Assembly (NCBI GenBank): GCA_043228905.1
Contig: JBHGNT010000022.1
Coordinates: 1,240,001 to 1,304,000 of the forward strand
Direction: 5' to 3'
Source: Azolla caroliniana
Taxonomy: Eukaryota; Plantae; Polypodiophyta
DNA length: 64,000 bases
Part shown: one piece after another, positions 7,114-62,500 of the stretch
Position numbering within the stretch: position 1 is the first letter of the stretch
How the letters are laid out: each line of letters starts with the position of its first letter
The notes under the pieces: model-generated
The model's database searches: none
Seen by the model: only the letters and a program-made list of their open reading frames with translations
What the model was told of the DNA's origin: nothing
Translations under genes and position numbers: made by a program

Positions 7114-7377
7114 CACCGCATTTATCAATGGGTGGGCACACAGAAAATCGCATCACTGAGTGGCACGATCTACATATATAACAGCTCGAGAAAAGTACAT
7201 GCTCGTCCTTTAGGAAAGAGCGAGTCGAAGGGTCCGCTAGCATATCACCGCATTTATCAATGGGCGGGCACAAAGAAAATCGGATCACTGAGTGGCACGA
7301 TATACATATATAACAGCTAGAGACAAGTATGTGCTCGTCCGTTAGGAAAGAGCAAGGCGAAGGGTCTGCTGGCATAT
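7114..7377. repeat. Tandem duplication, 2 x 132 bp
   Basis: CACCGCATTTATCAATGGG starts at 7114 and at 7246, and the two units are colinear. Confidence 0.9.
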
Positions 7378-7396
7378 CACGCGTGGATCTCCCTAG

Positions 7397-7800
7397 CGAA
7401 TGTGGGCGTGCAGGGGTCCTTTTTGGGGCGGACAAAAGCATGGCGAATGTGGGCGTGTGCAGGGGTCCTTTCGGGGCGGACAAAAGCATGAGAGGCTGAC
7501 GAGGGGTGTCCGAGGGGGGTCATCTTGGGTTGGCCAAAAACACGGGAGGCTGATGGGGGGTGTCATGGGGTTGTCTGGGGCCGGACAAAAACACGAGAAG
7601 TTGATGGGGGGTGTCCGAGGGGGGTTGTTTGGGGCCGGACAAAAACATGGGAGGTTGATGGGGGGTGTCCTGGGGTTGTCTGGGGCCGGACAAAAACACG
7701 GGAGGCGAATGGGGTGGGGTGTCCGGGGGGTCGTCTCGGGCCGGACAAAAACACGGGAGGCGAACCGGGGGGGGGGGGGGTGTGTCCGGCCGGACAAATT
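7397..7800. repeat. G-rich ~50-55 bp minisatellite (about 8 units, core GGGGCCGGACAAAAACACGGGAG)
   Basis: The GGACAAAA(A/G)CA core recurs at ~7430, 7478, 7533, 7583, 7637, 7688, 7743 and 7792, with long G-runs between cores. Confidence 0.9.
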
Positions 7801-28350: not shown

Positions 28351-29163
28351 CCATGTTGTAGGTTTTAGGGTTAGGGTTAATGATTATGACAATAATGAAG
28401 ATAGAAATAGGGTTAGCGATATTGATTATGTCAGCATAAAAGACCGACTCCTTCCACTTTGTATCTTAGTGTGAACACGTCTTGAAGTTAGGGTTTGAGC
28501 ATATATGCTCAACCATAACATTGTAACGTTGATTCTTCTTGTATCTTGAGTCTTTGAAAGTGTAAGAGTTACAGAATAACGAAAGCTTCCATTAGAGCTT
28601 GAACCATGTATACGTTTCAATCATTTCTGCCACATTCTCTATGTTGTTTGCTATGCACATAACCTACAAGTCTTCAAATTTTTTTAGCATATCTGTCTAC
28701 AAGTGGTATCAGAGCGACTGATTGCTCGGCGGCAACAAAATAAGCCAAGAAAGTTGAAAAAGAAGACAAGGTCAGTAAAAACTCACTTTCGAAAAAGAAT
28801 ATGGCTTCAACATTGGAACATGAGTTGAAATCCGAAAGTTCGATGGCAAAAATTTTGCCTTGTGGAAGGAGATGATGTAGGATGTGCTGATCATTAGAAG
28901 ACAAGATGAAGGTATTCATGGAAGGAGATGATGTAGGATGTGCTGATCATTAGAAGACAAGACGAAGGTATTCAACACAATGAAAAACCCACTTCAATGT
29001 CAGTTGAAACATGGAGATCATTAGACAAAATCGTGCGCTCCACCATCCGATGGCCAAGGAGATGACAACATTCTCGTTATTGGAGAAGTTGTAGGTTGTG
29101 TACGAAGTTGATACCGATCAGACAAATCTTTAACATGAAGATGAGAGAAACCAATCTAGCCAA

Positions 29164-32100
29164 TGTAATAGACAAGATGCCACATGGAATGGTAAGGGTT
29201 AAACCCATGACCTTTTGGTCTTATTGGGCAACCTTACCAGTTGAGCCACATCCATCTATGCTTATTGTATTGTATAAGATTCAACTTATTTCATTATAGA
29301 TTGATCACTAGAACTTTCAAGAACCTTCTAGAGAATGCATCTTCATGCACTCTCTAGAAGTCTTCTAGCTTTCATGCATACTGCCACATTCTTGTATAAA
29401 TATTGGGGTGCACCTTGATTACAATCAAGGTGAACAACACAAGTTATGAAAGCATATATAGTTCTTGTTTATTTGTCTATCCTCCGTCTTGCTTGTTCTC
29501 TTGGTTATGCTCTCTCTCATGCTATCTCTTAATATTTAACCTCATCTACTTGTCCTTGACAATCTTGTGATCTTGCTTATCCTCTCGATCTCTCTTAGTA
29601 CTTAGCCTCATTCCACCTGTTCGTGATAATTTATTCACCTTCCCATTTTCTAAACCTCAACATGTCAGATCTTACCAAGAGAATAAATCAGCTTGTGGAA
29701 GCCATGCACCAACTTCAACTTGAGAATGACAACCTTCAGGAATCATTACAGAAGCTTCAAGTTGGAACACCAATGGAACTTGAAGAAAAAAACAACTCTC
29801 CTCCTACATCAACAAATGTTCTACCTATAGAGCCTGGTTCATCATCTAGGCTTTCTCCGACTCCTCTCCATCCCACTACAAGTATGGAGCCCAAGTTTAG
29901 TTTACTTGACAAGTTCGATGGCACGATGAAGCACTTTCGAAGGTTTATAAATCAGATCAAGCTTATTATCCAACTACAACCTCAACAATATGCAGATGAT
30001 TTTCGTTAAGTTGGTCTCATCGGGACCCTTCTGTGTGGAGTTGCACAAGCTTGGTTTGCACCGTTGGTCGAGACTTCATCACCACTTCCACAAAATTTTC
30101 TTGCCTTTCTGGCAGAGTTTGAGGCAACATTTGGGGATACGGACTGACTCCGAACTACCATCACCAAACTCTATTCATTACATCAAGGTATCCGTCCGGT
30201 ATCCATTTATGCCTCTAAATTTAGACAATTAACATGTGATGTTCAGTGGGATGGCCAAGCTCTCTGCGACCATTTTCATCGTGGCTTTTGAAGCGAGATT
30301 AAAAATTTAACACTCAACTTTCCGGAGCCTACATCATTGTCGCAAGCCATCACACAAGCAGTTAGTTGTGAAAATCGGTTGTTTGAGCTTCTTCAAGAGG
30401 AACGAACTACTTCAATGTGGCAACCCTCTTCGAGATATTCTCCATTGTCATCGTACAATGACCCCGAGCCGATGAAATTGATCGAGCTCCCGCTCCGCCA
30501 CTCACTGAGGTTGAATGGAGGTATCGCTGAACCAACGGACTATGTTTATATTGTGGTGCATCCACCCATCTAATTCGTTTTTTTCCAATCAAGAATAATC
30601 AACAACAAATATCTACAAACAATATGACAAGACGGCCCCAACAAACAGAAAACGACGGTGTCCAACTACAGTAGGAGCTATGTGGTTGGACAATCCGCAT
30701 TTGTGTCGCTCCCATAGTTCGACTACATCGACATAAGATTTCTCCTTTCCGGTAAGCATCCATTTCACGTCGATTTCAATTAGGTCCTTAGCACTTCTCG
30801 ATTCCGGGGCAACAACGTGTTTTATGGACGAAAGGTTCGTTCATAAACACAAATTTCCAGTTGTCCGATTGTCCAAGCCAATCTCAATGGAAGCTATCGG
30901 TGGATGCATGCTTTCTTCGGGAACAGTCACCGAAGCCACTCTCCCACTTATCTTATAGCTCGGGGACCACCAGGAGGCCTTAACATTTTATGTTATCACT
31001 TCACCACGACATCCGGTCATCCTTGGTTGGTCTTGGCTGAAGGCACTGAATCCACTGGTTGATTGGCGCAATCACTCGATTACTTTCTCCCAAACCAGCT
31101 CGGAGGTGCAAGCAATATCTCATGTTGGTGCAGGCGCTCACCCTCCGCTTAATGCAGGAATCAGCTCCAAGGCGGATGTTCACATCCCAGTCACAACAAG
31201 GAAAATAGTGCATAGTGTCTCTACGTCGAGCAATCCAATGAGGACAACTATTGACTCACTACCGTCCAAGTATGAAGAATTCAAGGATGTGTTTGAGAAA
31301 AAGAATGTTGATCACTTGCCTGAGCATCGACGCTACGACAGTCCGATCGATCAACAAGAAGGTGCTAGTCCTCCCTTTGGCCCAATTTATGGGTTGTCAG
31401 AACCAGAACTCTAGGCACTCCAAACTTATCTCGATGAGAACCTTGAAAAGGGTTTTAGTCAACCCTCAAAATCATCAGTAGGAGCTCCTATTTTGTTCGT
31501 GAAAAAGAAAAATGGCTCCTTACACCTCTGCGTTGACTATAAGGGTCTAAACAACATTCTTGTTCGCAACCGCTACCCACTGCCTCTCATTCCAGAGCTG
31601 TTGGATCAACTCCGGACTAGGAAGATCTTCTCTAAGATTGACCTATGGGGAGGATACAATCTGGTATGGGTCAAACCTGGAGATGAATAGAAAACCGCCT
31701 TTAGAACGTGTTACGGTTGGTTGTCCCATTTCGGGCACAAGATGTGCAATCATTCCTTGGTTTTGCCAATTTTTATCGTCGCTTCATCAAAGGATTCTCA
31801 GTGATCGCACAACCTCTCATTGCTCTTACCTGCAAGGATGCTACTTTCGAATGGATAACAACCGCCCAAAAGGCGTTTGACTTGCTGAAACAAGCCTTTA
31901 CTATGGCACCAATCCTTTTACATCATGACCTTGCTAAGCCTTTCCGAGTCGAAACAGATGCTTCCGATTTCGCCGTTGGGTCGATCCTCTCCCAGCCAAA
32001 TGAGGTCGGTGTGCTTCACTCGGTGGCTTACTACTCCTGCAAATTCATGGCCCCAGAAATAAACCACCCCATATACGACAATGAGTTTCTCTCTATTATT

Positions 32101-34361
32101 GCTACTTTTGAAGAATGGAGATCCTATTTAGCCGGGGTGCAACATTGTATCCAAGTGATTACTGATCACAAAAATCTAATATAGTTTTCTACCACACAAA
32201 CCTTAAATCGTAGACATGCGCAATGGTCAACCTTCTTGGCAGACTATGATTTTGAGATAATCTTTTGACCAGACGCTCAACACACGACGACGGATGCCTT
32301 ATCCCGTTAGTTTGAGTTCGAGCTCACTCTGGAGGATGAAGCCTATGTTTAGTAGTCCCAGAGTTTGTTAAAGCCTGACCAATTCTACAACTTCACGACT
32401 TTCTTGCTCCGGGATGACTTTGTGCTCAAGAAAATAGCAGGTGCCACTACCACTGACAAGTTCACCACAGAGAGTATCACAAAGCCTTCCCATGAACCCA
32501 AAAGACCTGATTTAGCTCATTTTTCAATTAAGGATAATCTTTTGTATGTCCTAGAAGGTTCTTGTCAGACAAGGGTGCTTCACGAGTGTCATGATGATCC
32601 ACTTGTTGGTCATTTTGGCGTTGCGAAAAGCTTGGAGTTGATATCTCGGGGATACTGGTAGCCACAACCATGGAAATTGGTCAAACAGTTCGTTAAGTCA
32701 TGCGATGTTTGTACTCGCTCTAAAGCATCTCATCATTGACCATATGGTCTCCTTCACCATCTCCCAATCCCCAAACAGCCTTGGGCCTCTCTTTCCATGG
32801 ATTTCATCACTCACCTTCCCTTTGTTGGTGGTTATGACTGGGTATTCGTCATGGTCGATCACTTCACCAAGATGGCTCATTTTTCTCCATGTGCCAAAAC
32901 CATTACTGAAGAGGATACATCCGATTTGTTTTTCAAAAATGTGGTTCGACTACATGGACTCCTGGACAATATCACTTCTGATCGAAGACCACAATTTGTT
33001 TCCAATTTTTGGCAGCACCTTTTGCAAACTTTTGATTGTACTGTGAATCTGTCTTCCACCTATCATCCACAAACCGATGGACGAAAGGAGCGGGTTAACC
33101 AAATCTTGGAACAATACTTGTGGTGCTCTCTTAGCTACCAACAAGACAACTAGGTTGAGCTTCTCCCACTTGCCGAGTTCGCCTACAACAACTTTCTGCA
33201 TGCATCTACAGGAGTTACTCCATTTTTCGCAAACTACGGTCTCCACCCCGCTTCAACATTTCACTTCCCTCTAACTCTGTCAATCCTTCTGCGGAGGCTC
33301 GGGCATGTCTTTTGGAGGATGTACATCGTGATGTTTCCTTGGAGCTCACCCTCGCTGGCGAACGCTACAAGGAGCAAGTTGATTGTCTTCGCTTAGATGC
33401 TCCCCGGTTTGAGGTAGGTGACTTTTTTTGGCTTCTCCGTCGCAATATTGCCACCACTCGTCCTTGTCTGAAGCTTGATTACAAGAAGTTATGCCCTTTT
33501 TGAATCATCGAGAAAATTGGTTCCATGGTTGTTCGCTTAGAGCTACCATCCCACTTATGTATTTATAATGTATTCCATGTCTCCCTTCTGGAACCTCACC
33601 ATATATCTGAAATCCCTAGTTGATACCCATCTCCTCCACCACCAATCCAGCTCTCAACTGGAGAAGAATATGAGGTCGACCAAATTCTCGACTCTCATCT
33701 CTTCCGTCACCAGCTTCAATACCTTGTCCTCTGGAAAGGGTACCCGATCTCCGAAGCAACATGGGAGCCGTCACATCATCTCAAGCATGCCCCCGACATA
33801 GTTCGAGCATTTCATGAACGTTATCCACAAAAATTGGCCGCGGGTCCTAGGAGGTGGCCTTAGAGGGAGGATAATGTCATAGACAAGATGTCACATGGAA
33901 TGGTGGGGGTTGTACCCATGACCTTTTGGTCTTATTAGGCAACGTTACCAGTTGAGCTACATCCACTTATGCATTATTGTATTGTAGAAGATTCAACTTA
34001 TTTTATTATAGATTGATCACTAGAACTTTCTAGAACCTTCTAGACAATGCATCTTCATGCACTCTCTAGAAGTTTCCATGCACTCTCTAGAAGTCTTCTA
34101 GCTTTCATGCATACTGCCACATTCTTGTATAAATATTGGGGTGCACCTTGATTACAATCAAGGTGAACAACACTAGTTACGAAAGCATATATAGTTCTTG
34201 ATTATTTGTCTATCCTCTCGCTTGCTTGTTCTCTTGTCTATGCTCTCTCTCCTGCTATCTCTTAATATTGATCCTCGTCTACTTGTCCTTGAAAATCTTG
34301 TGAACTTGCTTATGCTCTTGCTCTCTTTTAGTACTTAGCCTCATTCCACCCGTTCGTGACA
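29164..34361 (+). mobile_element. Two-LTR Gypsy chromovirus (Tcn1/Tf1-like), decayed, RT core deleted
   Basis: LTRs 29164-29628 and 33875-34361, PPT before 33875, and a degraded 5-bp TSD (GCCAA / ACCAC, ancestral GCCAC fits the host gag). Domains: gag, protease LLDSGA, RT N-terminus, RNase H ETDASD, integrase and a chromodomain EYEVDQILD..YLVLWKGY..EATWEP (~33660-33790). Confidence 0.93.
29185..29254 (-). promoter_or_regulatory. tRNA-like Pol III A/B-box module in the chromovirus 5' LTR (antisense)
   Basis: Minus strand reads GGATGTGGCTCAACTGGTAAGG...ATGGGTTTAACCC...CATTCCA. A homologous copy is at 33896-33965. Confidence 0.65.
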
Positions 34362-36086
34362 ACCACCTCCCACATCAACACCTTCGGCTGGGTGTTGTCT
34401 GAACTCTCCTCCCAATGGATTAACTTCGAAGAAGAAGTTAAAGCCCTTGCCCTCCTATTGAGCTTGCCGATGAGTTGGGAGGTATTTGGCAGGATATTTG
34501 CTAATAGCCAACCAAATCTAAATCTAGAGGAAACAGTTGGCCAAGTCCTCAATAAGGATATTCGGCAAAAATCGATGGGACTCACCATCGACGAGTTGGT
34601 AGAAGCCCACCACTCTATGGAGTCAATCGACCGACTGAGTCAATCGAGAGAACAGGTTGACAAAATTGGTTGAAACACTAATCGATCAAAAATGAGGGGA
34701 ATTTGACAGTGGTTGAAGTCTAGAATGAATTGATCAAGCGAATTCTGCACTCATAGAAAAGCTGATCACAATGTTTCCAACTGCTAGTTGATCAAGAGGA
34801 AAGAGAGTGGTCAGCAACACGAGCGGAATCAAGGAAAACCTGACTCAAACCACTCTCCAGTTGGCAACGAAATCAATGTTGCTGACTCCCGATTAAGAAA
34901 AATCCTCTTTCTAGAGGACTTAGTGATCAGGAAAGTTCTCTATAGTGCGCAAGATGAACATACGTGGTTGCTAGATTCTGGTGCCACATGTTGCATGACC
35001 CCGAACATTGAATGGTTCTTGAGCTATTTGGCCGATGCCAACGGCATAGTTTGACTATAGAATGGGCAGGCGTATTGTCATTACAAGAATTAGACCCGAA
35101 GTCTGCACTCTCTCTACTACAAGGTGGTACCACAGCCCCTAGAGCTCATGCATACAGATATATGTGGGCCTATGCTTGAGTGATCTCTAGGAGGCTCCTG
35201 GTACTTCATCACTTTTGTCGATGATTGTATATGGAAGGTTTGGGCCTACTCGATCAGGTCCAAAGAAGAAATGCTCGAGGTCTTCACCGGGTGGATAATT
35301 GAAGTGGAGAACTGATTATGATATAGAGCGAAGACCCTCTGATTTGACATCAGAGGAAAATACACCTCCCGAACCTTCAAATAATACCTATCTGACAAAG
35401 GGATCTGGCATCAAAACACCGTTCGATACACACCCATGCAAAATGGAGTGGATGAACGGATCAACCGAACGATATAGGAGAGGATGATGACAATGCTCCA
35501 GCAAGCCGGACTGAAGCTAGAGTTCTTCGTTGAATCATTGTAGACGGCAATATATCTAGTCAATCTGTCACTGTCAAAAGCAATCTGGCTCGAAGTGCAA
35601 CAAGCACTATGGTCATGCAAACAACCAACCTATGATAGGCTTTGTATATTCAGATGTGAAACCTACGCATTCAGCCCCAGGGAGAAACAGACCAATTTGG
35701 CACCCCCTGCAATGAAATGCATATTTCTAGGTTATGGAACTGATGGGGAATTCGGCTATAGGCTATGGGACCTAGAGAACCGGAAACTAATCCAGAGTAA
35801 CGATGTATTCTTCAATGAAGACTCCATCCTCTCTGAGCAGATCTAGATGAAAATAGTTGGCAAAAAAGTATCATTCGAAATTGACAGAGATGTCATAGAA
35901 GGACCATCCTATCGGGCCAAATCGGAGATTCGACAAATAATCGAACTCATCCAACCCGACAACACACCTGTCGACTCCAAATCGGTAGGAGGTCCACTAG
36001 TTGAGCTCCAAGACAAAGCCATCAAAGACAATGCCGAATCAACAAGAGTTGAAAAAGGCAAAGGCAACAAGGTGCCAGTTGGAAAC

Positions 36087-38909: not shown

Positions 38910-39196
38910 TCAATTGCTACAATTGGCATTGGATAAAATAATACCCTCCGTTTGCACGGTCTCTCCATTAGGGTCTCTAATAACGAGACCTCTACCCACC
39001 GAATGTTTCACCTTATGAAACGCTCCATCAAAGAATAACGTGAAAGCATCCTCCATATCTAGTTCAGGAAGCACATCTCTTATCTTTGTCAATTTCTCCT
39101 CACGAACGTTTTCTCTAAAAGTAAGAAGATCCGCCAACTCCGCACATATGGTAGACTCAAGCTTAACCTCAAAATCATATTCAACTAATTGGAGAG

Positions 39197-42100
39197 TGTT
39201 GAGAATGTTTAAAAGTTATAACGGCTAGCCCAACGGCTAGTTGTTTCCAACAGCTAGTTGGCCCAACGGCCATATCTTGGCCTTTATAAAGAGGAACTTT
39301 CTCCTCATGTAAAAATAAGCGATCTCTGTATTTTCTCCCTCTAGTTGTGACATACCAACGTATGTTACTGAACATATGTGCCTTCTCATTTTTCTTTATG
39401 GTATCAGAGCATAGATCCGCCCCTGTACGAAACCCTAGATCCACCCTTCTGCTGGTATGACAACAATTGGAACAACATTGTCCTAGCATCCAAGAGAGGA
39501 AAGGGGGATTTGTTTTTCATTTGGGATGACATTGCTATGTGATTGAGAGATGACTTGAGAAAAGAAGTCAGAAGAGGAGAGCAGAGATAGGCGAAGTTGA
39601 GAAGATGAATGAGGTGTTCTCAAAATTGAATGAGGATGAGGTGAAAACATTGGTGAAATACATGAAGCAGGCTGAGATTGTAGCATCTAGAGGTGTGACA
39701 GGAACACAACCACCACCCCGACTTGAACTCCTCCCAGTTGAGTTCAAACTTGATGGACCAACCACATACTTGAGTTGGTTGCGTCGGATTATAGGTGCCT
39801 TGGTAGGGAGAAGCCTTGACGGCTACCTAACGGGAGAAGAGAAAGAACCTATTGTCACAACGAGCAATGAATGGAAAGCATGGAGAGCTACCCACATGTC
39901 TTTGTACACGTGGCTTCTCAACTCCATGATTCCATCAATCGCCACAACAGTTGATGGAATTTTAAGTGTGAAGGGGATATAGGAGAAATTGCAAAAGACA
40001 TATGCTGGGAGGGGAAACAACATGAGAGTATTTCAAATCGAACAAGAGATAGATGCTGTTTGGCAGGGAGATAGGATGATTCAGGAATATGCCATAGAGC
40101 TGGAGCGTCTATGGGTAGAATATGATCATTTCTCGCCTGTGACAGTGTGCAATGATCCTTAATGTAAGAGCAAGGAAATTTCTGCTCAAAGAAGAACCAT
40201 GCAATTTTTGAAACATCTCAACCCGTCGTTTTATCAAAGAAGGGCAATTCTTCTAGCCAAGGCTGAAATTCCCACACTTGATGAGGCAATTGCGACTATG
40301 ATACAAGAGGAGAGTAGAATGAAGCTACTCTTTGACACTACCAGACTTCCAGGGGTACGATCAGCACTAATGGTGTCAAATTCAAGCGGAAGTGAAAATT
40401 GAAAATGCTACAATTGTGGTGAAGCTGGTCATTTAAAGAATGCTTGCCCTAAACCATCGAAGGAGAGAGAATATGGAGGATGTGGACAAACTCGAGGTCG
40501 TAGTCGAGGGGGCCGAAGAGGTGCAAGAGGAGGTCACCAAGCAAACTTGATGGTAACAAAAGAAGAGGAAGGAACTAAGGTGGTGTTCACCAAAGAGGAT
40601 CAAGCTCTCTTAGAAATACTTAGGAGGAAGCAAAGAGCCGCAGATGATACTTCATTCATGTCAAGAGGTAACATTGCCACCTATGCTTATTCAGCCACAA
40701 GTACTAGCAACACAAATACTCTTGCCGCTACACTAGAATGGATAATTGATTCTAGTGCATCTAGGCATGTAATAGGTAATACTAGTGAATTCTCCTCGTA
40801 TATTGACTTATCAATGCTAGAAAGCATTCAAATTGCTGATAGTACAACACAACCTGTAGTGGGTATAGGTACAATAAAATGTACCGACTCTGTGACATTG
40901 TCTAATGTGTTGCATGCTCCTTCTTTCCTAGTAAACTTATTATCCATAAGTTCTATTAGACACCAACTAAACTGTGTTGTTTCTTTTGATATTCCCAAGG
41001 TGATATTCCAAGAGAAAGGGACAAGTCGGAGACTTGGGACTGGCACATGGCATAATGGACTATGGTATTTGGATCATGAAGGGTTGGATTCAACATTAGC
41101 ATCTATGGTAGAGGGAACAGATGTAAGGGGATCTAAAATGAGTTATGAGGAGTTGTTGATACTTTACCACCAACGTATGGGACATACCTCTTATGGCGTT
41201 TTGAGTCGGGTGTATCCAAACCTTTGTGAAAAGGCTGATAAAACAAAACTTGTTTGTGATGCATGTGAATTTGGTAAGCTTACTAAAAGCTCATATGCTA
41301 GTTCAGGTCATAGGAGTTCCCATGCATTTGATGTAATACACTCCGATGTTTGGGGACCATGTTCCACAAGTTCTATTAATGGATATCGATATTTTGTCTC
41401 TTTCATTGATTGCTTCTCTCGTGTGACTTGGTTATATTTGATGAGGAAAAAGAATGAAGTATTTTCTTGTTTTAAAGATTTTCATAGAACAGTTCAAACT
41501 CAATATGGTGCAGTAGTAAAAGTGTTGAGGTCTGATAATGGAACAGAGTATGCTAACATGACATTTAGGGCATACCTCTCATATCAAGGAATACAACATC
41601 AAACTACATGCCCATATACACCAGAACAAAATGGAGTAGCAGAGAGGAATAATATACATCTTCTAGAGGTAACGAGAAGCATGATGATTTCTATGAATGT
41701 CCCAAAGCAGTTGTGGGGACATGCAGTTTTGACGGCTGCCACATTGATCAATAGAATGCCCTCTAGAGTTTTGGAATGGAAGTCTCCATGTGAGTTGTTG
41801 CAAGGCAATAAATCTGGAACCCTTCCTTTGAAGGTGTTTGGATGTATGTGTTTTGTAAAGGACAGTAGACCATTTGTAGGAAAACTTGATCCTAAAGCTG
41901 TAAAATGTGTATTTATGGAATACTCTGCCACACAAAAAGGCTATGTTTGCTGGAGTCCAGTAGAGAAGAGATTATTTGTGAGCATGGATGTGCATTTCAG
42001 AGAGTCAGAGCCATATTATAAACAAGTGGTAACTTCACCCTTTGATGACTTAATTGAGACTGAAAATATGAGGGAAGGAGATAATGGTGAGAGGTTGCTA

Positions 42101-44283
42101 AAAATAGGGTCAATTCCTTTACTGATCCCTACATCAGCTGAGAAACAAGTGAGCGTAGGCGGTACGGAAGAAGAAGGAAACGAAGACGAGGAGCCTATAT
42201 GTGTTGGGACTCAAGCTAAGGAGGAGCTAAAGGTGTATACAAGGAAGAGGAGGCAAAAAGAAGGAAATATGAACACATCTTCAGTGCCACATGTGCCATC
42301 AAGTTCCATGTCCCGACCTGCCTCGACTTCTGAAATACCTACAGAACTCCCAAACCCAGAAATCACAGGTGATATGATTTCCTCTCCTTCTCCTATAGAG
42401 ATTAGGAGGACCTCTCGCAGTAATGCAGGAGTCCCTCCTGATCGTTATGGTTTTCCTCATGATATTGCTCAGTTTATCTCTTATTCTAACATATCAGCTA
42501 CACATAGAGCATTCACTGCATCATTAGACTCTGTCACTTTACCCAAGTGTTGGCAGGTTGCTAAAGAAGATCCAAAATGGAAAGCAGCCATGCAAGAAGA
42601 ACTCAGAGCTCTTGAGAAGAACAAAACTTGGGAGATTGTGTCACTACCACTAGGAAAGAAGGTGGTTGGGTGCAAATGGGTGTTTACAATAAAACAGACC
42701 CTAGAGGGAAAAATAGATCGATACAAGGCACGATTGGTGGCTAAAGGATATAGTCAGACATATGACATTGACTACAATGAGACTTTTGCACTTGTGGCAA
42801 AGATGAGCACTGTTAGAACGCTTATTTCCTTAGCAATGAATAAGGATTGGAAATTACATCAATTAGATGTAAAAAATGCATTCCTTCATGGAGAGTTGAT
42901 GGAGGAAGTGTACATGGATGTCCCCCTAGGTTTTGGTACAATTCAAACAATAGGTAAGGTTTGTAGACTAAGGAAGTGGCTTTATGGACTGAACCAATCT
43001 CCTCGAGCCTGGTTCGACAGGTTAAGAAGGGCTATGGTGGGTATGGGATACCAATAGACAAATGCAAACCATACAGTGTTTTTTCGACAACACAAGGATC
43101 ATACTACATTACTTGTTGTGTATGTGGATGATATAATTATCATGGGTAATGATGAAGGGGAAATTGCCCAACTGAAGGTGCAATTGGGTAAAGAGTTTGG
43201 GGTGAAGGATCTAGGATTGCTACGATACTATCTTGGAATTGAGGTAGCTCGTGGAGCAGAAGGAGTTGTTCTATGTTAGCGAAAATATGTATTAGATCTT
43301 CTCACAGAAACTGGAATGTTGGGTTGTAGGCCCGTAGCTTCTCCAATCGACCAAAAGATCAAGCTAACTGAACTTGCAGGAGAGAAAGTTGATCGTGACA
43401 GGTATCAAAGATTGGTAGGTCGGCTGATTTATTTGACTCACACCCATCCAGATATTTCATTTGCAGTAAGTGTGGTAAGTCGCTACATGCATGATCCGAG
43501 GAAAGATCATATGGATGCAATGTACCATATTCTGAGATATCTCAAAGGTGCCCTAGGGAAGGGATTAATCTTTAGAAAACATGGTCATTTTAACATTGAG
43601 GGCTATTGCGATTCTGATTGGGCTAGTTGTGCTAATGATAGGAAATCCACATCAGGATACTGCATGTTTGTTGGAGGCAATCTGGTCTCTTGGAAGAGTA
43701 AGAAACAGTTAGTAGTAGCAAGGTCAACAACCGAAGCAAAGTATAGAGCTATTGCTATAGGAGTTGCAGAGATGTTATGGCTGAGAACTCTCCTAGTAGA
43801 ACTAAAGGTGAATCAAGAAAATCAGATGATGTTGTGGTGTGACAATAAGTTAGCAATCAACATTGCCTACAATCCGGTACAGCACGATAGGACCAAGCAC
43901 ATCGAAATCAACAGATTCTTTATCAAGGAAAAGCTTGATAATGGAATATTAAAATTGAGTCATGTTTCTACTGAACATCAGGTAGCAGATTGTCTTACAA
44001 AGGGACTTGGGCCAGTAAGTCTTACTAGATTGTGTGACAAGATGGGCTTAGTGGATATTTTTCGCCCATCTTGAGGGGGAGTGTTGAGAATGTTTAGAAG
44101 TTATAACGGCTAGCCCAACGGCTAGTTGTTTCCAACAGCTAGTTAGCCCAACGGCCATATCTTGGCCTTTATAAAGAGGAACTTTCTCCTAATGTAAAAA
44201 TAAGCGATCTCTGTATTTTCTCCCTCTAGTTGTGACATACCGATGTATATTACTAAACAGATGTGCCTTCTCATTTTTCTTTA
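39197..44283 (+). mobile_element. Structurally complete Ty1/Copia element (Ale-like) with 202-bp LTRs; gag-pol inactivated by 5 in-frame stops
   Basis: LTRs 39197-39398 and 44082-44283 (8 differences by eye), TSD GAGAG on both sides, PBS 39399-39410 and PPT TGAGGGGGAG. A single frame 39605-44074 carries the CCHC knuckle, protease, integrase, RT YVDD and RNase H. Confidence 0.97.
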
Positions 44284-51170: not shown

Positions 51171-52499
51171 GATGTGAAGATGAGGGAATAACGATGTATT
51201 TAAAAGGATGTATTTAATAGAAATAGTTGTATTTATTTGAACCAAGTTTTATTTGTAATTGAAGCTACCAGTGCACTACTAAAAAATAAACCTCATCAAG
51301 CAAATCTATGTTGTTCTCTTGCAAAATTCCATCGCATGTGTTTACAATGGCAAACTAATTTATTAAAACTCTTTTAGTTCTGGGTATGTAGTCAGCTATC
51401 TTGTCAAAATGGGTATGATGTCTATTTTAAGAGTTTTCACTTCTTTGTGATACCTTACAAGGATTATGGTGAAAATTGTCAGAGGACATCATATCATCTA
51501 AAAATTGATATTTTGGAAAAATGAAAAGCTTCACTTGAGCATCCCCATTGTATGTGGATTCAATGGGCCTTGTAGATTTAATAACATCTTTTTGTTGCTA
51601 TACAAGCATCTATCTAGGGTCATATAATACAATTGTGTTTTCTTTCAGGATCATGATATCTTCTTTAGCATTAGGTAACTAAGAATAGCTTACCATTTAC
51701 TTTTTGAGGTTATGAATATTCATAGAAATTGTTCAATATTTACAATGATCCCAATCCCAATTTGATATTGGACAATGTCATACACCCTAGACCAAACAAG
51801 GGGGACTACATCTGAAAGCCAAATTCAGCTTATTCAATGGGCCAACATTGCCAAATTGAGCTCAATTCAATGGGCCGCCAACATAGTCTTTGCGAGTGTT
51901 TGGAAAGAGGTGGATCTCATACAGTGAAAACTTCGTTCTAATCGTTGAATTCATGCAACAGGAACACATTTACAATTGGAATTAATAGAAGCCGAGGGCA
52001 GGAACTAAAGAAGAATCTACTTGATTCTGATAAGTTAAAAGATTATATTTTCTACTAATATTTGGGAACCTATCAACAAGAAGAAAAACAGTTTCCCCCA
52101 ACTCTAGGAGACTCTTAGTAATGTCATATATATATATATATACTCTGTTTCTATTTGTCCTCTGAACTCTGAACTGGTACCGGACCATGTTAGAATTATT
52201 GTAAATTGAAGAGACCAAGCACACAATCAGGAGAAGACACATAGACTTGGCCATCGCAGAACTTTCCCCAGGATAATTGCCCACTGGGTTCTACGGGGCT
52301 AAACTTGCATTTTTTAAGGTCTTTTTTGTGACATAATCCATGGAAAGTGCAAAATGTTTTCTCTGCATCAATTCTTTTTTTTTGGGGGGGGGGGGGTTGT
52401 ATGCACATTGAAATCTGTTTTTTCTTTTTGTTTTTCCTAGGTTTTCTTCTTATATTAGTTCATTGTGGAAACTGAGCATCATGCTTGGAAACTTGTGGA

Positions 52500-53984
52500 T
52501 GTTTGTCGGATTTGATGACTCCCTCCAATTTTCGAAGCACAAATTCATGGAGTGGGTTGAAAGCTTGGGGAAGAGAAGAAACATAACGGCCCTCCTCCAA
52601 GAATTCGAAATGAGGTTTGCCCATCTCTCAACACTGGATCGGACAGTGCTTGATACGAGCAAGGTCCTATTGTTTATCAAGTCTGTTGATGCGGAGGACC
52701 ATGAGAAGGTAGACATTCTGCTCAAGACTGATGAGGGACTCACGGCTGATGGGGTTGTGGCAAAGAGGGTTTGTGGCCACTTCGACATGCGGCTGGACTA
52801 GACAAACGAATGGGCATTCGTGGCCACGCCGACGGTATGCAAGAAACAGGGAGGGTAGCTTTGGTGCGACCAGATGAGACAAGGTTGTGGCTGGAATCAG
52901 GGACGGTTCCAACTAATGTGGTTGGCAGACCGGCCGGGGACCCAGCACTAGAAGAGTTGACCAAGTTGATGCAGGACCTCCAAATCGCACAAGCACGAAG
53001 GGACTTCGGAGGTTTGAACAAAGGTGCATGTGGTGCGATGTCGTCGGCCATGACCGGAAGAACTGCATGGATTTTAATGAAGCGCTCAGAAATAATGTTG
53101 TGTACCTCTAGAACAGCCGGGTGCACGCCAATGAGACACAGGCGGCCGTCAGTTTGAACTTCGGCCAAGGTGGAATGAAGTGATTAATGGAAGAGGCTAT
53201 GATGCAACACGTTGAGACCGTCCACTATTCAGCGTCAACCGGCATCCGGATCAGAGGAGAAGATGACCAAGTGACGAAAGACTCCAGGTTTTGGCTATTG
53301 GTTCTAGAAGGTCTTTCTAGGGTAAAGCTAAGGAAGGAGGAGGCAGACCATGTGGAAAGGCAGGTCCAAGAGGGCACCGGATGGGACGATCCAGTAGACG
53401 AGAAAACCGGCTTTGTTGAGGCTTGTGCTAGAACTATGAAGTTCTAGTAGAAGACAAGCGAGCCGGGAAGGGCAGAGTAGCTGGACCTATATGAGACCCA
53501 AAACGTGCCGAAGAAAAACAACGTGATTCGGGGCGGCCCACAGGAGAGGTTGAAACCGGCAGGTTTTTGATTGGGCTCGAAGATAGAGAGAGCGACAGAC
53601 CTACGAAAGGTCTTGGAGGAATGAATCCTTGCCAGCCGCGTGGAGCTCACCCTAAGGGAGGTACTGGGGATTGCAAAGAAAGTATTCCACGATTCCATCG
53701 TGGACCTGGTTAAACGGGAAGTGGCTCTTGACAAAGCCCGTGGAGGTAAGGGCCACATGTATCGATGATGCAGCAGAAGATGATTGTTTAGACAACCACT
53801 ATACGAAACCACATTGGGCTAGAGCAATGACAAAGATCCCAATCTGGATCGGGGATGTCAAGGAGTTGGTCGTGGCATTAATCGACCATGGGTTAGAAAT
53901 AAACCTACGTCGTTGGACTTCTACAAGAACGAGAAATGGTTGATTAACACCAAGCACGGGTGAAAGATACGTGCAGCAACCCGT
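52500..53984 (+). mobile_element. Old degenerate Gypsy gag-protease copy of the same family as the 53985 element
   Basis: FMEWVE..LLQEFEMRFAHLSTLD..VLLFIKSVD and ALIDHGLEINL are colinear with 54660-56500; many stops. Confidence 0.88.
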
Positions 53985-56900
53985 TGTCGTGAAGAAAACC
54001 GTCCACAAGCGGAATCGGTGCACAGGAGCGTAGGAACCGGCTCTTCTCGAATGTTGTCCATAGAAGATCCTAGGCGGGTAGATTTAGTGGGTAGGAAGTA
54101 AAGGGGAAACGGCTCCTTCCTTGCCTATAAAAAGGAGGGAGACGAGAAGGGAAAGGGGATCACGGAGAGTCGAGGACGAAGTGCTGTCGATTTGCGTGCG
54201 AAGGCTTCTCTCTCTCTCTCTCTGGTTCGCAAACTCCATAGCTTCCTTCTGTGCAGGTTTCGGGAGGCTCGCGCTGCTCTGAGGAATGCCCGAGTGCTTC
54301 CGGTAGCACCTCCAACCTACTGCTGTCTTTCTGTGCGTTTACGAACAGGCATCGGCATCTGTTCGCCGGCCTATTCGGTTGTAACCGACTCCGTGTTTTT
54401 GTTGCTTTCGTGTTCTTGTTGTTGTCTTTGTTAATACATACATACCTTCGTGTCTCTCTGTGTCGTTGTCCCACTCGCATCTTTGCGTCGAAGGGCCGTG
54501 TCCCTGTGAATCTACGCTCGCACGTAGTGGGTCTCTTCTCTTTCTCTCTTGCTCTTCGGTACAGGACCCCCGAGGTCCCGCCTCACTCCACGCATCTGCG
54601 AGGAATACCTCGACATCTTTGGTGAACCCGACGTGAAAGAGGCGGCAGAAGAGCAGAAGATGAAAGGGTCAGATCTTGCGGAGGCCATGGCTTCGGTCGT
54701 GGATCGGATACTGAGCGTACGCGAGGGCTCCGGCGCCCTCGACAGAGCCATTGAGGCGGTCGTCGGTACAATCGGCCGGTTCAGCGGAAAGGATGCCACG
54801 AAGTATTTGGCGTCCTACGGGGCAGAAATGCTGATGCGGGACATTCCGGAAGAGAGGCGTCTTGTCGGGTTCCCTCGAGTGGCGATGCCGAGCATCCATG
54901 CGGAGGTGCTCGAGGTGCGGGCGGAGAGCCGTACCTGGGAGGAGTTCGAAGGTCGACTCCTAGAAAAATATGGGCTGGACGATGCGCTCCGGCTTTCAAA
55001 ACAGGACTTCATGGAGTGGGTGGAGTTCCCCGGCAAGGGAAGAAACGCGTCGGCACTCCTCCGGGAGTTCGAAGAACGCTTTGCGCGCCTTTCGGCGCTT
55101 GACCGAACCATTCTGGATACGAGCCAGGTACTACTGTTCGTCAAATCGGTGGACGAGCGGGACCGGGATCAAGTCGGCTCCTTGCTGGAAACCGAAGACG
55201 GGCTGACAACCGACTGGGCTGCGGTTAAGAGAGTCTGTGGCCGTTTCGACAAACGGCGAGAATGGGCTGACAACGGGGCGGCCGGTGCGAGCTCTGTCAC
55301 AGCAAAGAGGCTTGAACCGGCACCGCAAGTGCGAAGGGAAGAAACCCGGGAATGGCTCGAAACCGGCCCGGCTTCGACTGGCATGGTCAGTGGCTCGTCC
55401 GGAGGAGCAACGCTGGAGGAGTTGACGCGGGCGATAAAGGATCTCCAGATCGCCCAGACTCGAAGGGAAGGCGGCGAACCGGCTTGTGACCGACGGCCGG
55501 TAGCAGGGAACAGGTGCATGTGGTGCGACGAGGTCGGCCACATCCGGAAGGACTACGGCGATTTCGCAAAAGCGTTGAGGAACCGGGCGGTATACCTGTG
55601 GGAAGGCCGGGTGCACGCCGGCAACACCAGAAGGGCCCTGAACCGAAACGACGGGCGAGGAGGAATGAAGAGACTGATAGAAGAGGCAGCGGCCCGACAC
55701 GTGGAGGCCATCCAGTACTCGGCGTCGGCCGGCATTCGGGTCGGGGGCAGCGAGGCCCGAAAGGAGAGCAAAGACGGATTCTGGTCGGCAATGCTGGAAG
55801 GCCTCGTCGGTGCACGGCTGAGGAAAGATGAAACAGACCGCGCTGAGGAGAGACGGGTCCGGGAAATAACCAGGTGGAGCGATCCGGTCGAGGAGAAGAC
55901 GGGCTTCGTAGAAGCCGCCTGCCGGAACTACGAGGCTCTGGTAGAAGACAAACGAGTGGGGAAAACCGGAGCGACAGGGCCTTCACAACGGTACGAGACC
56001 CGATTCGGGCCACAACGAAACGATGCCGGCGGCCCAGCTCGCAAGATAACCCCAGGAAGGGTGGATACCGACTGGGGACGGAAATAGAAAGGACTACGGA
56101 CCTACGGAAGGTCCTAGAGGAACGGATCCTCGACAGCAAGGTGGAGTTGTCATTGCGGGAGGTGCTAGGGATCGCCAAGAAGGAGTTCCACGACTCCATT
56201 GTAGACTTGGTGAAACGGAAGAGGCTGTCAACGGAGACGGATCCGGAAAGACCGGTAGAGGTGCGGACGACGCACATCGACGACTCGGCGCTGGCAGATG
56301 AGTGGGCGGAGAGCCACTATTCGAGGCCACACTGCGCCCGAGCGACCACGGAGACCCCGGTAAAGATCGGAGATGTTCAGGAACCGGTGGTGGCGTTGGT
56401 GGACCACGGTTCGGAAATAAACCTGATGTCCATGGACTTCTATAAAAAGGGGGAGTGGCCGATCAACACCAAGCACGGGTGGAAGATACGGGCGGCGACG
56501 CGCGCCACCGAGGAACTGCCCGAACGTGCGAGTCAAGATCGGCGACGTCGAGATTGACCAGCACTTCTTTGTACAGGAGACGTCTTCGCACCCGGTCATA
56601 TTAGGGGAACCATACATCACGGCGGCGCGAATGGAGACCAAGGTGCTGGACAACGGTTCGGCCTACGCGAGGGTCAAAAGCCAGGACGGGCGCCATTCGG
56701 TCCAATTTCTGACGGTGCGGCCGAACCACGAGCGAAACCGCGAATCCCTCAGTGGCGAGAACCGGGAGGATTTTTAGAGAGGGCTGCCAAGGCGTGGGGC
56801 CGAGACAGCCCGGACACTCGGAAAGGACCCCACGACTGTACGATAGGTAGGAAGTTTTGCTTCTTCAACAACGGAGGGTGTATGATGGTTGGCATCGTCG

Positions 56901-58420
56901 GCCAAGACAAGACAAGGGCAGAAGAGCGACTTCGAGCGTGCGGAGTTCTCGGCCCGGACGAGGAAATCAGCAGAGCCGTGGAGGCGGTCTCCTTCGAAGA
57001 CACCTTGGGAATGCTGAGGAAGGTAGCCAGAGAAGACCTTAACGAAGACCGGACGATACCGGTATGTTCTGAAGAGATGTACGAGGTCATCGCGAACTTC
57101 AGTCGGGGGCTCGGGTCGGATCGGACGGCCCGAGTTAGCACGAAGTACAAGACTGTGGACCGGAAGGTAAGGCCAGTCGCGGCACCCTTACCGGAGGGCA
57201 GCGAGTCCCGAATCAGAGGGGTTGCGTCGGACCCCAGTTTACGAGATCCGGCCTGCATAGGGCACACCTTCACCGAAGGGACACTCCGGGAGCTCAAGAT
57301 CGGTGGGGGTGGGTTCCTACTGCCGGCGGAGGAAGACCGGTTTCGGAGAATGCTCGGAAGGCATGAGAAAGCCTTCGCATTCTCACCAGGAGAGATCGGG
57401 TGCATTGACCCGACGATCATAGAACTAATAGTGATCTTCACGGTGCCGCATGTGCCATGGAATCTCAAACCGATTCCAGTACTGAGAGCTCACATCCCGA
57501 AGTTGATGGAGTACAAAAGCAGAAAGTGGAGATGGGAATCCTCAACCCATTGAGTGCCCCCTATTCGAATCGGTTGTTTACGGTGCCAAAGAAGAACATC
57601 ACATTGCGCTTCATACAGGACCTACAACCGGTCAAACAATTGACCATTCGGAACGCAGGAATCGGGCCGACCATCGACGAGTTCATAGAGGCCTTCGCGG
57701 GAAGGCCGATCTACTCAGTCGGCGATTTGTACTCCAAGTATGACCAGTTCCAACTAGCCATAGAAAGCAGTTATATCACGATGATGTGAACCCCTCTCAG
57801 CTTAGTTAAGATAGGTACCTTGCTAGAAAGAGGGATTAACTCGGTGGCGTACATGGTGAATGCGATGTACAAGGTTTTGAGGGAGTGTATCTCAGACATC
57901 ACCATGCCATTTTTGGAGGACATCCCGATCAAGGGATGTCTAGAGGAAGCGAAGGACGAAGAGTTTGGGCCAAACAAGTGCCAAAAGTTTGTCGTGGACC
58001 ACATCTCGGAAATCGAGAAGATACTACAGAGGCTTGAGGGCACTCGGCTTACCTTCTACGGGGAGAAGTCGGCTTTTAGACAATCTGAGATCTTAGTGGT
58101 GTGGCACTTATGCGGGCCGTACAGCTTGAAACCGTCTCCGGTAAAGGTAGAGGCCATCTCCGCGATGAAGGAGGATGCAGGTCGGTCACAGAGGTCCGAA
58201 GATTCCTGGGAGCATGCGCCTTCTAGCACATATGGATTCCGCACTACGCAAACGTCGATGAGCCGCTCTACGGACTGTTGAAGAAGGGTCAGAAGTTCGA
58301 GTGGGAAGAAGAACATGCGGAATCGGTTCGGAGACTAAAGGAGGCACTAACTGTGGCACCAACTCTCCATAAAGCGGTCTATGGGAAGGACACCCCAATT
58401 TACGTAATGATGGACATGAG
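53985..58420 (+). mobile_element. Gypsy element with tRNA-Trp PBS: 5' LTR, gag, protease, RT; truncated by a Copia LTR
   Basis: LTR 53985-54615 (TGTCG..CGACA) and PBS TGGTGAACCCGACGTGAA 54620-54637, complementary to the plant tRNA-Trp 3' end. Gag from ATG 54660 with a CMWCDEVGH knuckle, LVDHGS protease, and RT fragments to 58420. Confidence 0.92.
56768..56834 (+). promoter_or_regulatory. Candidate -1 programmed ribosomal frameshift signal (G GAU UUU + pseudoknot)
   Basis: The heptamer is immediately followed by the protease-frame stop. The -1 frame is open into the RT ORF, and pairing stems follow after a 6-nt spacer. Confidence 0.8.
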
Positions 58421-59960
58421 TGTTGAGAGACAAGCTCAACATTGGGTGCGTAAACGGGTGCGTAACCCAGTACGTAGACTGGGTGCGTAAAATAGTACGC
58501 AAAATATGGCCGTGGCGGTGTTTGAACCAAGAGGCTGTTAGAACGTTATTCCTCGTAAGGCTCATTTATGAGCGGTTAAGTAATGTCAGTTCTTGTGTCA
58601 ACCCAATAGTTGGGGCTTGTATAAAAGGTGCTCATTGAGCACAAAATATGTATAGAGAACATACATAGAATTTTTTAATATAGTTTTGGTGTTTCTGCTC
58701 TCTCTGTCTCTCCCTCTCTTTCTTTGTGATTTATGTGTTTTACCAAATTGTCGTACTACTGAACCGTGTACTTTGTGTTCTTACACATACGCTTCCCCAC
58801 ATGTATTCTTTTACATGGTATCAGAGCGCGAGGGTTGAGACTCCTCTGCAGCCGACATAAAAGCATGCGATAAAGACAGAGTTAAGTTATTGTTTTCGGA
58901 AAGGATAAGACAACAATATGGATAGAGGAATGGGAAGCTCACTACCGACTGAGAAGCTTGATAGGAGCAACTACGCATCTTGGTCGTACAAGATGCATCA
59001 GTACCTACTTGGTCATGGTTACTGGAGTTATGTCCAAGGAGCTAATGATATAGCGCCTGAATCAACACACGGATATTTTTCAGCTTGGGAATAAGCGGCA
59101 AGCAGAGTTCTTTACTACTTCGCGTCCTGTGTGAGCGACGATCTCTTGAGCTACATTTGGGATGCTCCGACACCAAAGGATGCATGGGTGAATCTCAAGA
59201 GGATTTTCACCACTAGCACAACAGCCAGGAAGTTGTAGCTCAGGCAGGAGCTCAGCAATGTCTGATAGAAAGACCTGTCTGTGGCCGATTCACTGCCCGA
59301 ATCAAGGAAATCTGCGACTCTCTCGCCTCCTTCAACGTGAACATCGAGGAGGAAGAAATGGTGCAGGTGTGTCTTCAGGTGGGTTAGCGTCAAAGTTCGG
59401 AGCGTTCCAGACGGCGGTCTGCACAAGGGAGATTATGCCTTCGTTCTTCGAGCTTCAGTCGATGTTGATTGTAGAGGAAAATCATGTGGGTGCGTCGACG
59501 AGTACGCACACCGACAGCAAGATGTTGTACACGGAGGAAGATAGGCCCCGTGGTCATGGCAGACGAGGCGAATCAGCTCGCAATGGGGGCGGCCAAAAAG
59601 AGCAGAACGTGCGGCATAATAGAAATGTCGGAAGCAATTCTGAACCCTCCTGAAGCAGGGGGAGTCATAGTGTCACCGGAAGCTGACAAGAGAAGACCGT
59701 GACGAAATGCTGGTATGGTGGCAAGAAAGGCCATAGGGAGAGCGAGTGCTGGAAGAAGAGAGCTGATTCGGACAAAGCCAGATCGAGCAGAGGAGACGCA
59801 GGAAGGCGTCAAAAATCGCACTATGCCGAAGGCTCCGAATGAGCCGGAAATGGATCAAGCCCAGCCTTCGTAATGAAGCACAATGCCAATTCGATGGCCA
59901 TGAACACCTCGGAATCGAGGGGAGGTCTTGTATGTTGATTCTGGAGCGTCGAATCATATA
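58421..59960 (+). mobile_element. 5' part of a Copia element (LTR, PBS, gag, protease), truncated
   Basis: LTR 58421-58815, PBS 58816-58827, gag from 58918 (EKLDRSNYASWSYKMHQYL), CWYGGKKGHRESEC knuckle and YVDSGASNH. Confidence 0.9.
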
Positions 59961-61680
59961 TGTAATCCATCTTAGCATAGTTACATCCGATATCGTGCAA
60001 CACCGCATCATCCCGAGTATCGGAAGACAATCCGTTTCGATCACTACTTCGGCTCCGATCAAGTAATCTCGATCTAATTTTATCACCAACACGACTCCCC
60101 ATAATTCTCTTTTAACCTGTGCATATCCGTGTTGCCTTTCGTTGAGAACCTTTGCTCCGAATCGGATCGGATATAGTGAACCATCCGAATCTGCTTGATT
60201 GATGACCCATCCTTACCGATTCGTACTTGTTTTGCTCCGAGAGTTTTCATCCTGTGTGGGGTATCATGGCTTCTCGGACTATTACTTCCCCACTCCACAA
60301 TAGTCCGCTTTAAATTTTCATTTTTGTTTGGACGGTTTTCCCTCCGCTTTGGCTCCAAATTTGTACAAAAGCCGCTCCGCTATCGAGCACCTTTGTCTCC
60401 ATCCATGAAGTCGTGATAAAGGGTTGCCCGAGGATCATAGAGTGTGAGACCTCATCTTGCACGAAGAAATTTTGGTCAATCTCCACATCTCCGATCTTCA
60501 CCGTCACATCCGGACAAGCCGCAAATAAATCTTCCGTTGCTTTAGTAGTTGCCCAAATCTTCCATCCATGATTAGTGTTAATAGGCCACTTCCCCTTCCG
60601 ATAGAACTCCGTGGACATCAAATTGATCTCCGATCCATGATCAATCAATGCTAGTACGTGCTCTTTGATGTTTCCGATTTGGACTAGAGTCTCTGTAGTT
60701 ACGTGTGCCCAATGCGGCCTTGTGTAGTGGGAGTTCAGAATTTCATCCTCCAATTCGGTGTCATTCATTAGAACGGTATTTGCATTCATCCTTGGAGCAT
60801 TTTCCTCCGTATTTTGTCTTTTTCTCTTCACGAGATCCACAAGAAGATCATGGAACTCCTTCTTCGCTATTCTGAGTAATTCCCGAAGCGAAAAATCTAC
60901 ATGGCTATCAAGGATTCTCTCCTCGAACACATTTTTTAAGTCCGTTCGTTGCTCAATGTCCGAAGCGAGTTTGAATGCCGGAATTGTTTTTCCTTTCCCC
61001 TTCCCTTTGGAGTTCCAGCTCTCCGGCGTCTTTGATGGTCCGACCGCATCATCTGTGCGCCGTCGTTTCTCATCTACATACACCTCATGTAATTGGCATA
61101 GGGTGTACATGATATTCTTATCGACGGGGCACTCCCATCCCGTAGCTTCTCGGATGCCTTCCGTGGTGCTTCAGATCTCATTAGAGTCAGGTTTCTTAGG
61201 GTTTTCTAGCACTTCCGGCCAAAAAGACGTCTTTGCTCCCGAGGACTCACCCACACATATCCCCGCGGTTGTCGCATAATTGCTTTTCGCCGCTATTTCC
61301 TCTTCTAGGACCTTCTTCATGCCGCCTTTTCGGAAGTTTGGTCGGAGTGGCTTCCGAATGAATCTAATTTCCCTCGTAGTAGATAAGATCTCGTCGTAGC
61401 GCCTCCTTGAGCTCATCGCAATCCCTTCGATCATGTTCAGTGCCATCGCACCATATGCATTGACGATCCATATACTTGGAACTTGTGGGATGGTCATCCG
61501 ACTTCTTCACCATCGCGATTTTCAGATTCTCCATCTCCTTCAGCAACTGCTCCACCGTGGTTGCATCGATTCCCTTCTCGGTCGTAGTCTCCCGAGCCCA
61601 CGGTTGATGGTCTTCCAATTCGGATCTTGGTTTCGGAATTGGTTCCGAAACCCTCTTTTCTTCACTACCAAGCCATTACA
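59961..61680 (-). mobile_element. Gypsy remnant related to the DHG-protease family (gag, protease, RNase H piece), internally deleted
   Basis: CIWCDGTEHDRRDC, ALIDHGSEINLMS and VVIETDCLPILGM. Confidence 0.85.
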
Positions 61681-61689
61681 ACACTGACC

Positions 61690-62500
61690 ATGGATGAGCT
61701 TCTACAACTGGTGGAAGCCGTGCTATATCATAAAGGAAGCGATGGTATCTAGATGCAAAGGATACGGCAGGATGAGAAGGATGCAATACTACACTAGGCC
61801 CATTGTGGTACCACAAGAGGGCACTACGCAGGGGATGTCATGGCCAGAAAAGTATGGCAAGCGGGCCTGTGGTGGCCAACTATGCTTGAAAGGATGTGTA
61901 TCAGTACTGCGACCTCTGCCAACGCTTGGGACAACCTACGGAACTTGCAAGGATGCCTCACCAACTGGTGCTTCCGCTTGACCCTTTCCAAAAATGGGGT
62001 CTCGATTTTGTTGGCCCCTTTACTTCGACAGCGGCATGTACAGGCAATAAATATATTATAGTGGCCACGGATTATTGCACAAAGTGGGTGGCAGCGAAAG
62101 CGTTACAAGACAATACTGCGGCATCTACGGCAAAGTTCCTTTATGAACACATTTGGTGTCATTTCGGTTGCCCAATTGAACTCATAAGCGATCAAGGGAG
62201 CCATTTTTTTAATATGGTTATCCACGAACTCACAAACCATTATGCCGTAGTACATAAGAAGAGTATGCCATATTACCCCCAGACGAATGGATTAGCGGAA
62301 TCGACGAACAAGACGCTACAGACTATCATGAAAAAGATCGTTAATGAGAATAGAACGGACTGGGACACAAAGCTGCATAGCGCTTTCTAGGCGTACTGAA
62401 CAAGTTATAAAACTAGCATACAATCCACTCCCTTCCGACTAGTGTTCGGGTTGGAAGCCGTAATGCCCATTGAATTCCAGGTCCCCAGCTTGCGGTCTAG
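61690..62500 (+). mobile_element. Gypsy integrase fragment
   Basis: CDLCQR, PFQKWGLDFVGP, ISDQGSHF and YYPQTNGLAESTNK. Confidence 0.9.

Follow-up and report, generated by a model that had tools for sequence, protein, structure and literature searches.

The window analysed here, a 64,000-nucleotide stretch of the Azolla caroliniana genome (C22:1240001-1304000 of a 523-Mb assembly), contains a protease reading frame that ends in GAG GAT TTT TAG at 56766-56777 and a reverse transcriptase (RT) frame that lies in the -1 register. The heptamer GGATTTT occupies 56768-56774, a spacer of 6 nt precedes the first of several complementary segments, and the -1 frame is open for 261 codons from the site, running into an ORF whose first ATG is at 56882. 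An earlier note on this DNA had read the arrangement as a -1 frameshift signal joining gag-protease to RT, and all the coordinates and pairings that it gave were correct when checked against the sequence. Since the same copy carries other breaks (near 56050, 56515, 57510 and 57790), the first question was whether the junction is simply one more of them.

The junction sits inside what is recognisable as a decayed Phygy-like Ty3/gypsy LTR retrotransposon on the plus strand. Its 5′ LTR (TG...CA, 53985-54615, with the NCGN-type left flank CCGT) is followed by a primer-binding site complementary to the 3′ end of the host tRNA-Trp (54620-54637) and by ORF1 (54660-56777), which comprises a helical Gag, a zinc knuckle, DUF4100 and a D-H-G protease and ends in ...EDF-stop. 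The TAG of ORF1 (56775-56777) stands directly behind the slippery heptamer G_GAU_UUU, and the spacer covers 56775-56780. ORF2, in the -1 frame (56768-58421), consists of a leader of about 124 codons, RT and the beginning of RNase H. In the window copy ORF1, a single ORF in other copies, has breaks near 56050 and 56515, and ORF2 has them near 57510, 57790 and 58190; beyond about 58421 no similarity to whole copies is left. The four whole copies of the focal family measure 6.96-6.99 kb, with LTR identities of 96.5-98.0%. The LTRs and the domain order PR-RT-RH-INT are those that define Ty3/gypsy LTR retrotransposons, and RT, RNase H and integrase are all encoded in ORF2. One decayed copy (L067) has an internal deletion that joins protease to RT. 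Named protein relatives of the element come from Physcomitrium, Adiantum and Riccia, with close ones in Physcomitrium patens; language-model neighbours also include basidiomycete clusters, which we regard as a lead only, and a search of viral contigs for relatives found none.

The surroundings of the element are a nest of insertions (window 52412-62400). The focal element interrupts an older DUF4100 element (about 52412-53984) and is itself interrupted near 58421 by a third one, which has a TGGTATCAGAGC primer site at 58816 and no Pfam match and which we take to be copia-like. A minus-strand DUF4100 element follows at about 59965-61700, and a second, decayed junction belonging to a sister subfamily lies on the minus strand at 60256-60320, where the heptamer is damaged and both stems are readable. 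In that subfamily a TCCGAGA/TCTCGGA pairing is possible, which would compete with stem 1. Further away in the window, two long direct-repeat pairs about 4.7-4.9 kb apart (29162-34362 and 39191-44283) probably represent further LTR elements, a copia-like RT motif occurs at 43121, and tandem repeats of about 132, 105 and 200 nt were seen in 7114-7789 and 13667-14069. The tRNA-Trp 3′ pattern has 62 matches genome-wide and forms clusters (C8:17796786-17823371, C16:4989495-5105637 and C5:10105608-10112201, with a spacing of about 1.2 kb on C8), which are either tandem tRNA-Trp arrays or repeats carrying them.

The position of the junction after the protease, with RT in the -1 frame, holds family-wide. 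Among the nearest copies, GGATTTT-TAG and the frame were kept in all 30 that were fetched (40 scored, 2355 candidates), a set that is biased because the query itself contained the junction; in four of these 30 both frames run open as far as the locus extends, over 529 codons before the junction and 543-544 codons after it in the -1 frame. In a second subfamily, for which the query lay upstream of the junction, the heptamer GGATTTT was kept in 23 of 29 copies by our own count. Metagenome loci (n = 80, most contigs coming from one accession series) were found with protease-region peptides, and 66 of them contain the junction, the remaining 14 being truncated or broken. Seven of the 66 were too short and two had no RT motif; in the 57 scorable loci RT lies in an open -1 frame in 54, in an open -2/+1 frame in two and in a broken frame in one. 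The earlier note had named a single frame shared by protease and RT as a finding that would overturn a frameshift. No such shared frame was found: the D-H-G protease motif and the RT-lead motif lie in one frame at 0/209 loci.

The site itself is more constant than its coding function demands. The codon preceding the terminal Asp-Phe-stop ends in G in 59/59 loci, over 12 different codons, and the terminal Asp-Phe site reads GGATTTT in 56/59 as against 5/140 internal Asp-Phe pairs, although these heptamer counts are not independent as the rows are related. The heptamer is conserved at silent positions, which points to conservation at the RNA level. For the junction alignment, 29 rows were retained out of 42 non-redundant representatives, and 13 decayed or short-frame ones were dropped. 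Across these 29 aligned families the Pol frame contains no stop in 3356 codons, a figure that is partly the result of selection since the 13/42 representatives with short open frames had been removed. From the shift site to the RT-lead motif runs a leader of 120-155 codons, which is kept open across families; a recurring EE.SF.DT-like motif was noticed in it (L091:3993-4360 and homologues), and it has no Pfam match at cut-off. The ATG at 56882, which the earlier note had used as the start of the downstream ORF, proved unconserved, the first Met of the Pol frame falling anywhere from codon 3 to codon 111 in the 26 scored families.

The product released at the ORF1 stop would carry the protease at its C-terminal end. 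The ORF1 of L094, counted from its ATG, is 708 amino acids long and matches DUF4100 and, weakly, an aspartic protease; the gag-asp_proteas model is matched by 8/28 ORF1 homologues. A zinc knuckle was found in 63/80 homologues and the D-H-G triad in 80/80 (56401-56409 on the plus strand in the window copy). Retropepsins usually carry D-T/S-G in place of D-H-G. A PDB sequence search with the ORF1 profile gave nothing under an E value of 0.6. In the AlphaFold model of homologue P0001 the N-terminal part is helical and the C-terminal domain rich in beta strands, and a Foldseek search with this model gave Ddi1 and retroviral proteases as the best PDB matches (best E value 8.9e-6). The C-terminal end of ORF1 is therefore a predicted retropepsin-like fold with an atypical D-H-G triad. 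The C-terminus reads DF in 67 of 100 scored homologues and PL or PF in 21, the latter typically a few residues past the Asp-Phe pair. In L167, L169, L172 and L174, ORF1 passes the heptamer by five codons and stops inside stem 1, giving DFxxxPL-like ends. As ORF1 continues into stem 1 in some families, a stop right behind the heptamer is not required.

Downstream of the heptamer the earlier note had placed a pseudoknot, and a predicted H-type knot is indeed found 6 nt away, with stems 1 and 2 kept across the 29 junctions. A 6+6 Watson-Crick H-type knot located 5-9 nt after the site arose in only 2/2000 dinucleotide shuffles and at 25/3621 element positions. Stem 1 (56781-56811, 56781-56788 with 56804-56811) is 8 bp long in the family; in the focal subfamily it consists of 6 bp, a C.A mismatch and one C-G pair, and the six pairs are formed in the window copy by GGGCTG (56781-56786) and CAGCCC (56806-56811). 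Its six core pairs are 97% paired over the 29 junctions, and changes on both sides were seen at 8 of 11 tested pairs. The covariation check that had been called for came out strongly for this stem, at 0.38 compared with 0.23 in shuffled alignments (0/500) and at most 0.18 in slid controls; the shuffle controls, like the permutations used for stem 2, ignore the relatedness of the rows.

Stem 2 (56793-56834) pairs CGTGGGG at 56793-56799 with CCCCACG at 56828-56834 in the window copy. Drifting loop lengths bring its pairing down to only 62.6% in fixed alignment columns, and it was therefore tested without alignment. A duplex between the loop and the downstream segment was obtained in 29/29 junctions, cognate partners giving -13.1 kcal/mol versus -10.9 kcal/mol for non-cognate ones (0/20000 permutations), and matched swaps are visible between families (GUGGGG/CCCCAC, GCGGGG/CCCCGC, GAGGGU/ACCCUC and GCGAGA/UCUCGC). 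The stem is weak in L148, L163 and L169.

The stimulator had been described as three-stemmed. Stems 1 and 2 stood up to analysis but the third stem, CCGAG (56800-56804) with CTCGG (56817-56821), did not do so as a conserved part: it is 34.5% paired in the 29 families, which is below the 40-48% reached when the whole structure is slid. Of the 29 focal copies 28 have the third stem intact, yet among 27 near-clade variants the full 5 bp is present in one and a 3-bp core is possible in 20, and we rejected it as a conserved element. The third stem and the top pair of stem 1 compete with each other, and the former may form in the focal subfamily, where the top of stem 1 has the C.A mismatch. As it is unconserved, the stimulator is predicted to be a two-stem knot; moreover, the second and third pairings together make one nested arm with a 6-nt bulge, so that even the full set would give an H-type knot and not three crossing stems. 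Nested folding of 56775-56845 was no better than for shuffles (z -0.81), a result that is uninformative for a knot. An Rfam scan of 54000-59000 returned four matches, all with E values near 1 and none meaningful, and an alternative CCGG-loop-UCGG hairpin, weak at -3.6 kcal/mol, overlaps the end of stem 1.

Three sequence-level features of a canonical -1 signal are thus present together, namely an X_XXY_YYZ heptamer in its G_GA variant, a structure within 5-9 nt and an open -1 ORF. Judged from sequence, the junction very probably directs -1 programmed frameshifting between protease and RT in the manner of Rous sarcoma virus (RSV). We propose that translation would mostly terminate at the UAG, yielding Gag-protease, and that a minority of ribosomes would pause at the predicted knot with Asp and Phe tRNAs on GAU UUU. 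These tRNAs would re-pair on GGA UUU, and reading would go on as L-E-R-A-A-K into Pol. Protease output would in this way equal that of Gag, and reverse transcriptase would be made only rarely.

Three other routes to Pol were weighed, each of which we regard as very unlikely. The first is splicing of ORF1 to Pol in the manner of Ogre, the heptamer and stems serving some other purpose such as packaging. Ogre does possess an intron between GAG-PROT and RT according to the available text of PMC6317226, and database gene models of Physcomitrium and Riccia leave out the junction. However, no GT[AG] donor is common to more than 3/29 families within -45 to +20 nt, and in 54/57 loci the RT frame is already open at the heptamer and beyond it, which an intron would make unnecessary. 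Seven long database proteins join protease to RT, yet each drops a different piece of the junction, which, as judged from the proteins, fits automated gene models. Contigs from three runs that are RNA or may be RNA showed no joint, which weighs little as these concern relatives whose copies make up only small shares of the runs; one 1744-nt contig of a relative, which may be DNA, spans the junction unspliced, and the joints in a fourth run, probably DNA, are low-depth deletions. The lack of a shared donor and, more weakly, of a joint in RNA contigs is what makes splicing improbable.

The second route, in which Pol is translated on its own from an AUG like the one at 56882, either by reinitiation or on a subgenomic RNA, has just as little in its favour. 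The window copy does offer ATG ATG at 56882-56887, but the variable position of the first Met described above makes reinitiation unlikely, the frame stays open upstream of that Met all the way back to the heptamer, and silent-site conservation and a fixed spacer would be left unexplained. Equally improbable is the third route, in which transcriptional slippage adds one U to the U run without any ribosomal slip. A five-U run is present at the site in 22/29 families and six U in one, but the run is merely 3 or 4 U in 6/29 families, and a knot at ribosome-tunnel distance and a fixed G_G would be unexpected for a polymerase event. Decay of the window copy, with stems arising by chance, is refuted in spite of its several other breaks, since the same junction recurs in 30/30 near copies, some of them uninterrupted on both sides, and in 54/57 metagenome loci, with 0/209 in-frame fusions, and is conserved and covarying across families whose ORF1 proteins are down to about 40% identical.

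Alongside the proposed -1 shift, a sister clade points to a different slip. L145 (2836-2910) and L152 (2498-2572) carry A_G_GUU_UUU with five bases rather than six before stem 1. Their -1 frame closes after 2 and 7 codons, respectively, and Pol is open in the -2/+1 frame for 484+ codons in L145 and 486+ codons in L152. In an unrooted RT tree of 28 rows with no outgroup, the two form one side of a 100/100 branch. The L145 family has at least 40 copies in the host genome (among them L178-L207); the site is kept in 20/20 fetched copies, of which seven are open on both sides. The whole sister copies L208 and L209, with LTR identities of 96% and 100%, have two uninterrupted ORFs each, NCGN duplications and the Trp primer site, and the sister family is 7.87-7.91 kb long. 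Given such intact young copies, the layout is no assembly error and is present in recent insertions.

The sister clade probably uses pseudoknot-driven frameshifting in the -2 direction. A -2 slip would leave the Phe tRNA perfectly paired on UUU, whereas for the rival +1 slip the 3′ position of the knot and poor re-pairing at the stop-adjacent codon would be unfavourable. L163 combines G_GUU_UUC with a six-base spacer and remains in the -1 frame; the change thus seems to be marked by the spacer and not by the heptamer. For the lineage as a whole, we lean towards a history in which these retrotransposons of non-seed plants have a knot-driven shift after the protease and one recently active branch went from -1 to -2 through G_GUU_UUU and the loss of a spacer base. 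If this is true, the elements of this branch would obtain all their reverse transcriptase from a naturally occurring -2 frameshift driven by RNA structure, and the branch would serve as a natural test of whether the length of the spacer determines how far the ribosome slips. This probable -2 variant is the most novel part of the finding.

With the same knot in both, the sister clade offers natural cassettes of the -1 and -2 kind that match each other, on which the effect of spacer length on slip size could be tested in plant ribosomes. For the Phygy-like group as a whole, the junction adds a defined candidate expression signal and an alpharetrovirus-type layout with protease at Gag level, and suggests why gene predictors invent introns there.

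Comparison with known systems is drawn below from the available text of the sources cited. The element resembles Phygy, a non-chromovirus Ty3/gypsy lineage (PMC6317226), in its 4-bp NCGN duplication, tRNA-Trp primer and PR-RT-RH-INT order, and we call it Phygy-like on the target duplication, primer and domain order rather than on a reference tree. The NCGN target-site duplication was found in 5/6 whole copies (L091, L093, L094, L208 and L209), the flanks of L092 being different. The focal family, at 6.96-6.99 kb, is shorter than the 7.66-9.97 kb listed for Phygy (PMC6317226), and the sister family falls within that range. In its available text this 2019 survey lists the coding organisation of Phygy as not determined, describes no lineage with a prevailing GAG-PROT/RT overlap and reports breaks after the protease solely in Ogre and Retand, as an intron, spacer or stop. 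These Tat elements share with ours a polyprotein interrupted after the protease; Ogre has a spacer or intron, Retand and some Ogre elements a single stop codon, and both carry aRH, whereas the frames of the focal element overlap and its families share no splice donor. A 2003 survey, as cited in the accessible part of a 2016 review (PMC5009743), counted only two types of plant element with separate gag and pol frames, both using +1. A 2025 review (PMC12786077) covers frameshifting in general terms only and details splicing for plants in its available text, and no such junction is described in the accessible parts of PMC3248453, PMC2864245 (the supplement of which may list fungal cases) or PMC5014426. 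In the mostly open-access literature that was searched, there was no description of the -1 signal or of that of the sister clade.

The heptamer has its closest parallels in plant RNA viruses, as the earlier note had stated: the G_GA variant is listed for umbra- and dianthoviruses, with a usual spacer of 5-9 nt (PMC5009743). Their G_GAU_UUU sites, for example that of pea enation mosaic virus RNA2, also have a stop close behind, but they use a bulged stem-loop with a long-distance partner where the fern element has a predicted local H-type knot. In layout the nearest system is Gag-Pro|Pol of RSV and other alpharetroviruses ('0/-1'; PMC1224870, PMC5009743), which likewise keeps the protease in the Gag frame and enters RT by a -1 shift at a 3′ pseudoknot. 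The fern element differs in being a Ty3/gypsy element of a plant genome with no env seen, and in its G_GAU_UUU heptamer with the stop directly after it; a third stem is reported to matter in RSV, whereas that of the fern element family is unconserved. As for the sister clade, its G_GUU_UUU is the -2/-1 site of PRRSV nsp2 (PMC9000960, PMC5009743), and in an engineered HIV cassette a shorter spacer raises the ratio of -2 to -1 products (PMC5009743). As in PRRSV, the -1 frame behind this heptamer closes almost at once, after 2 codons in the L145 family, and the product lies in the -2 frame. The PRRSV site relies on a protein complex bound 10 nt downstream at a C-rich motif, in place of which the sister clade has a predicted, covarying RNA knot 5 nt downstream, and, unlike PRRSV, the sister clade would depend on the shift for the whole of its Pol.
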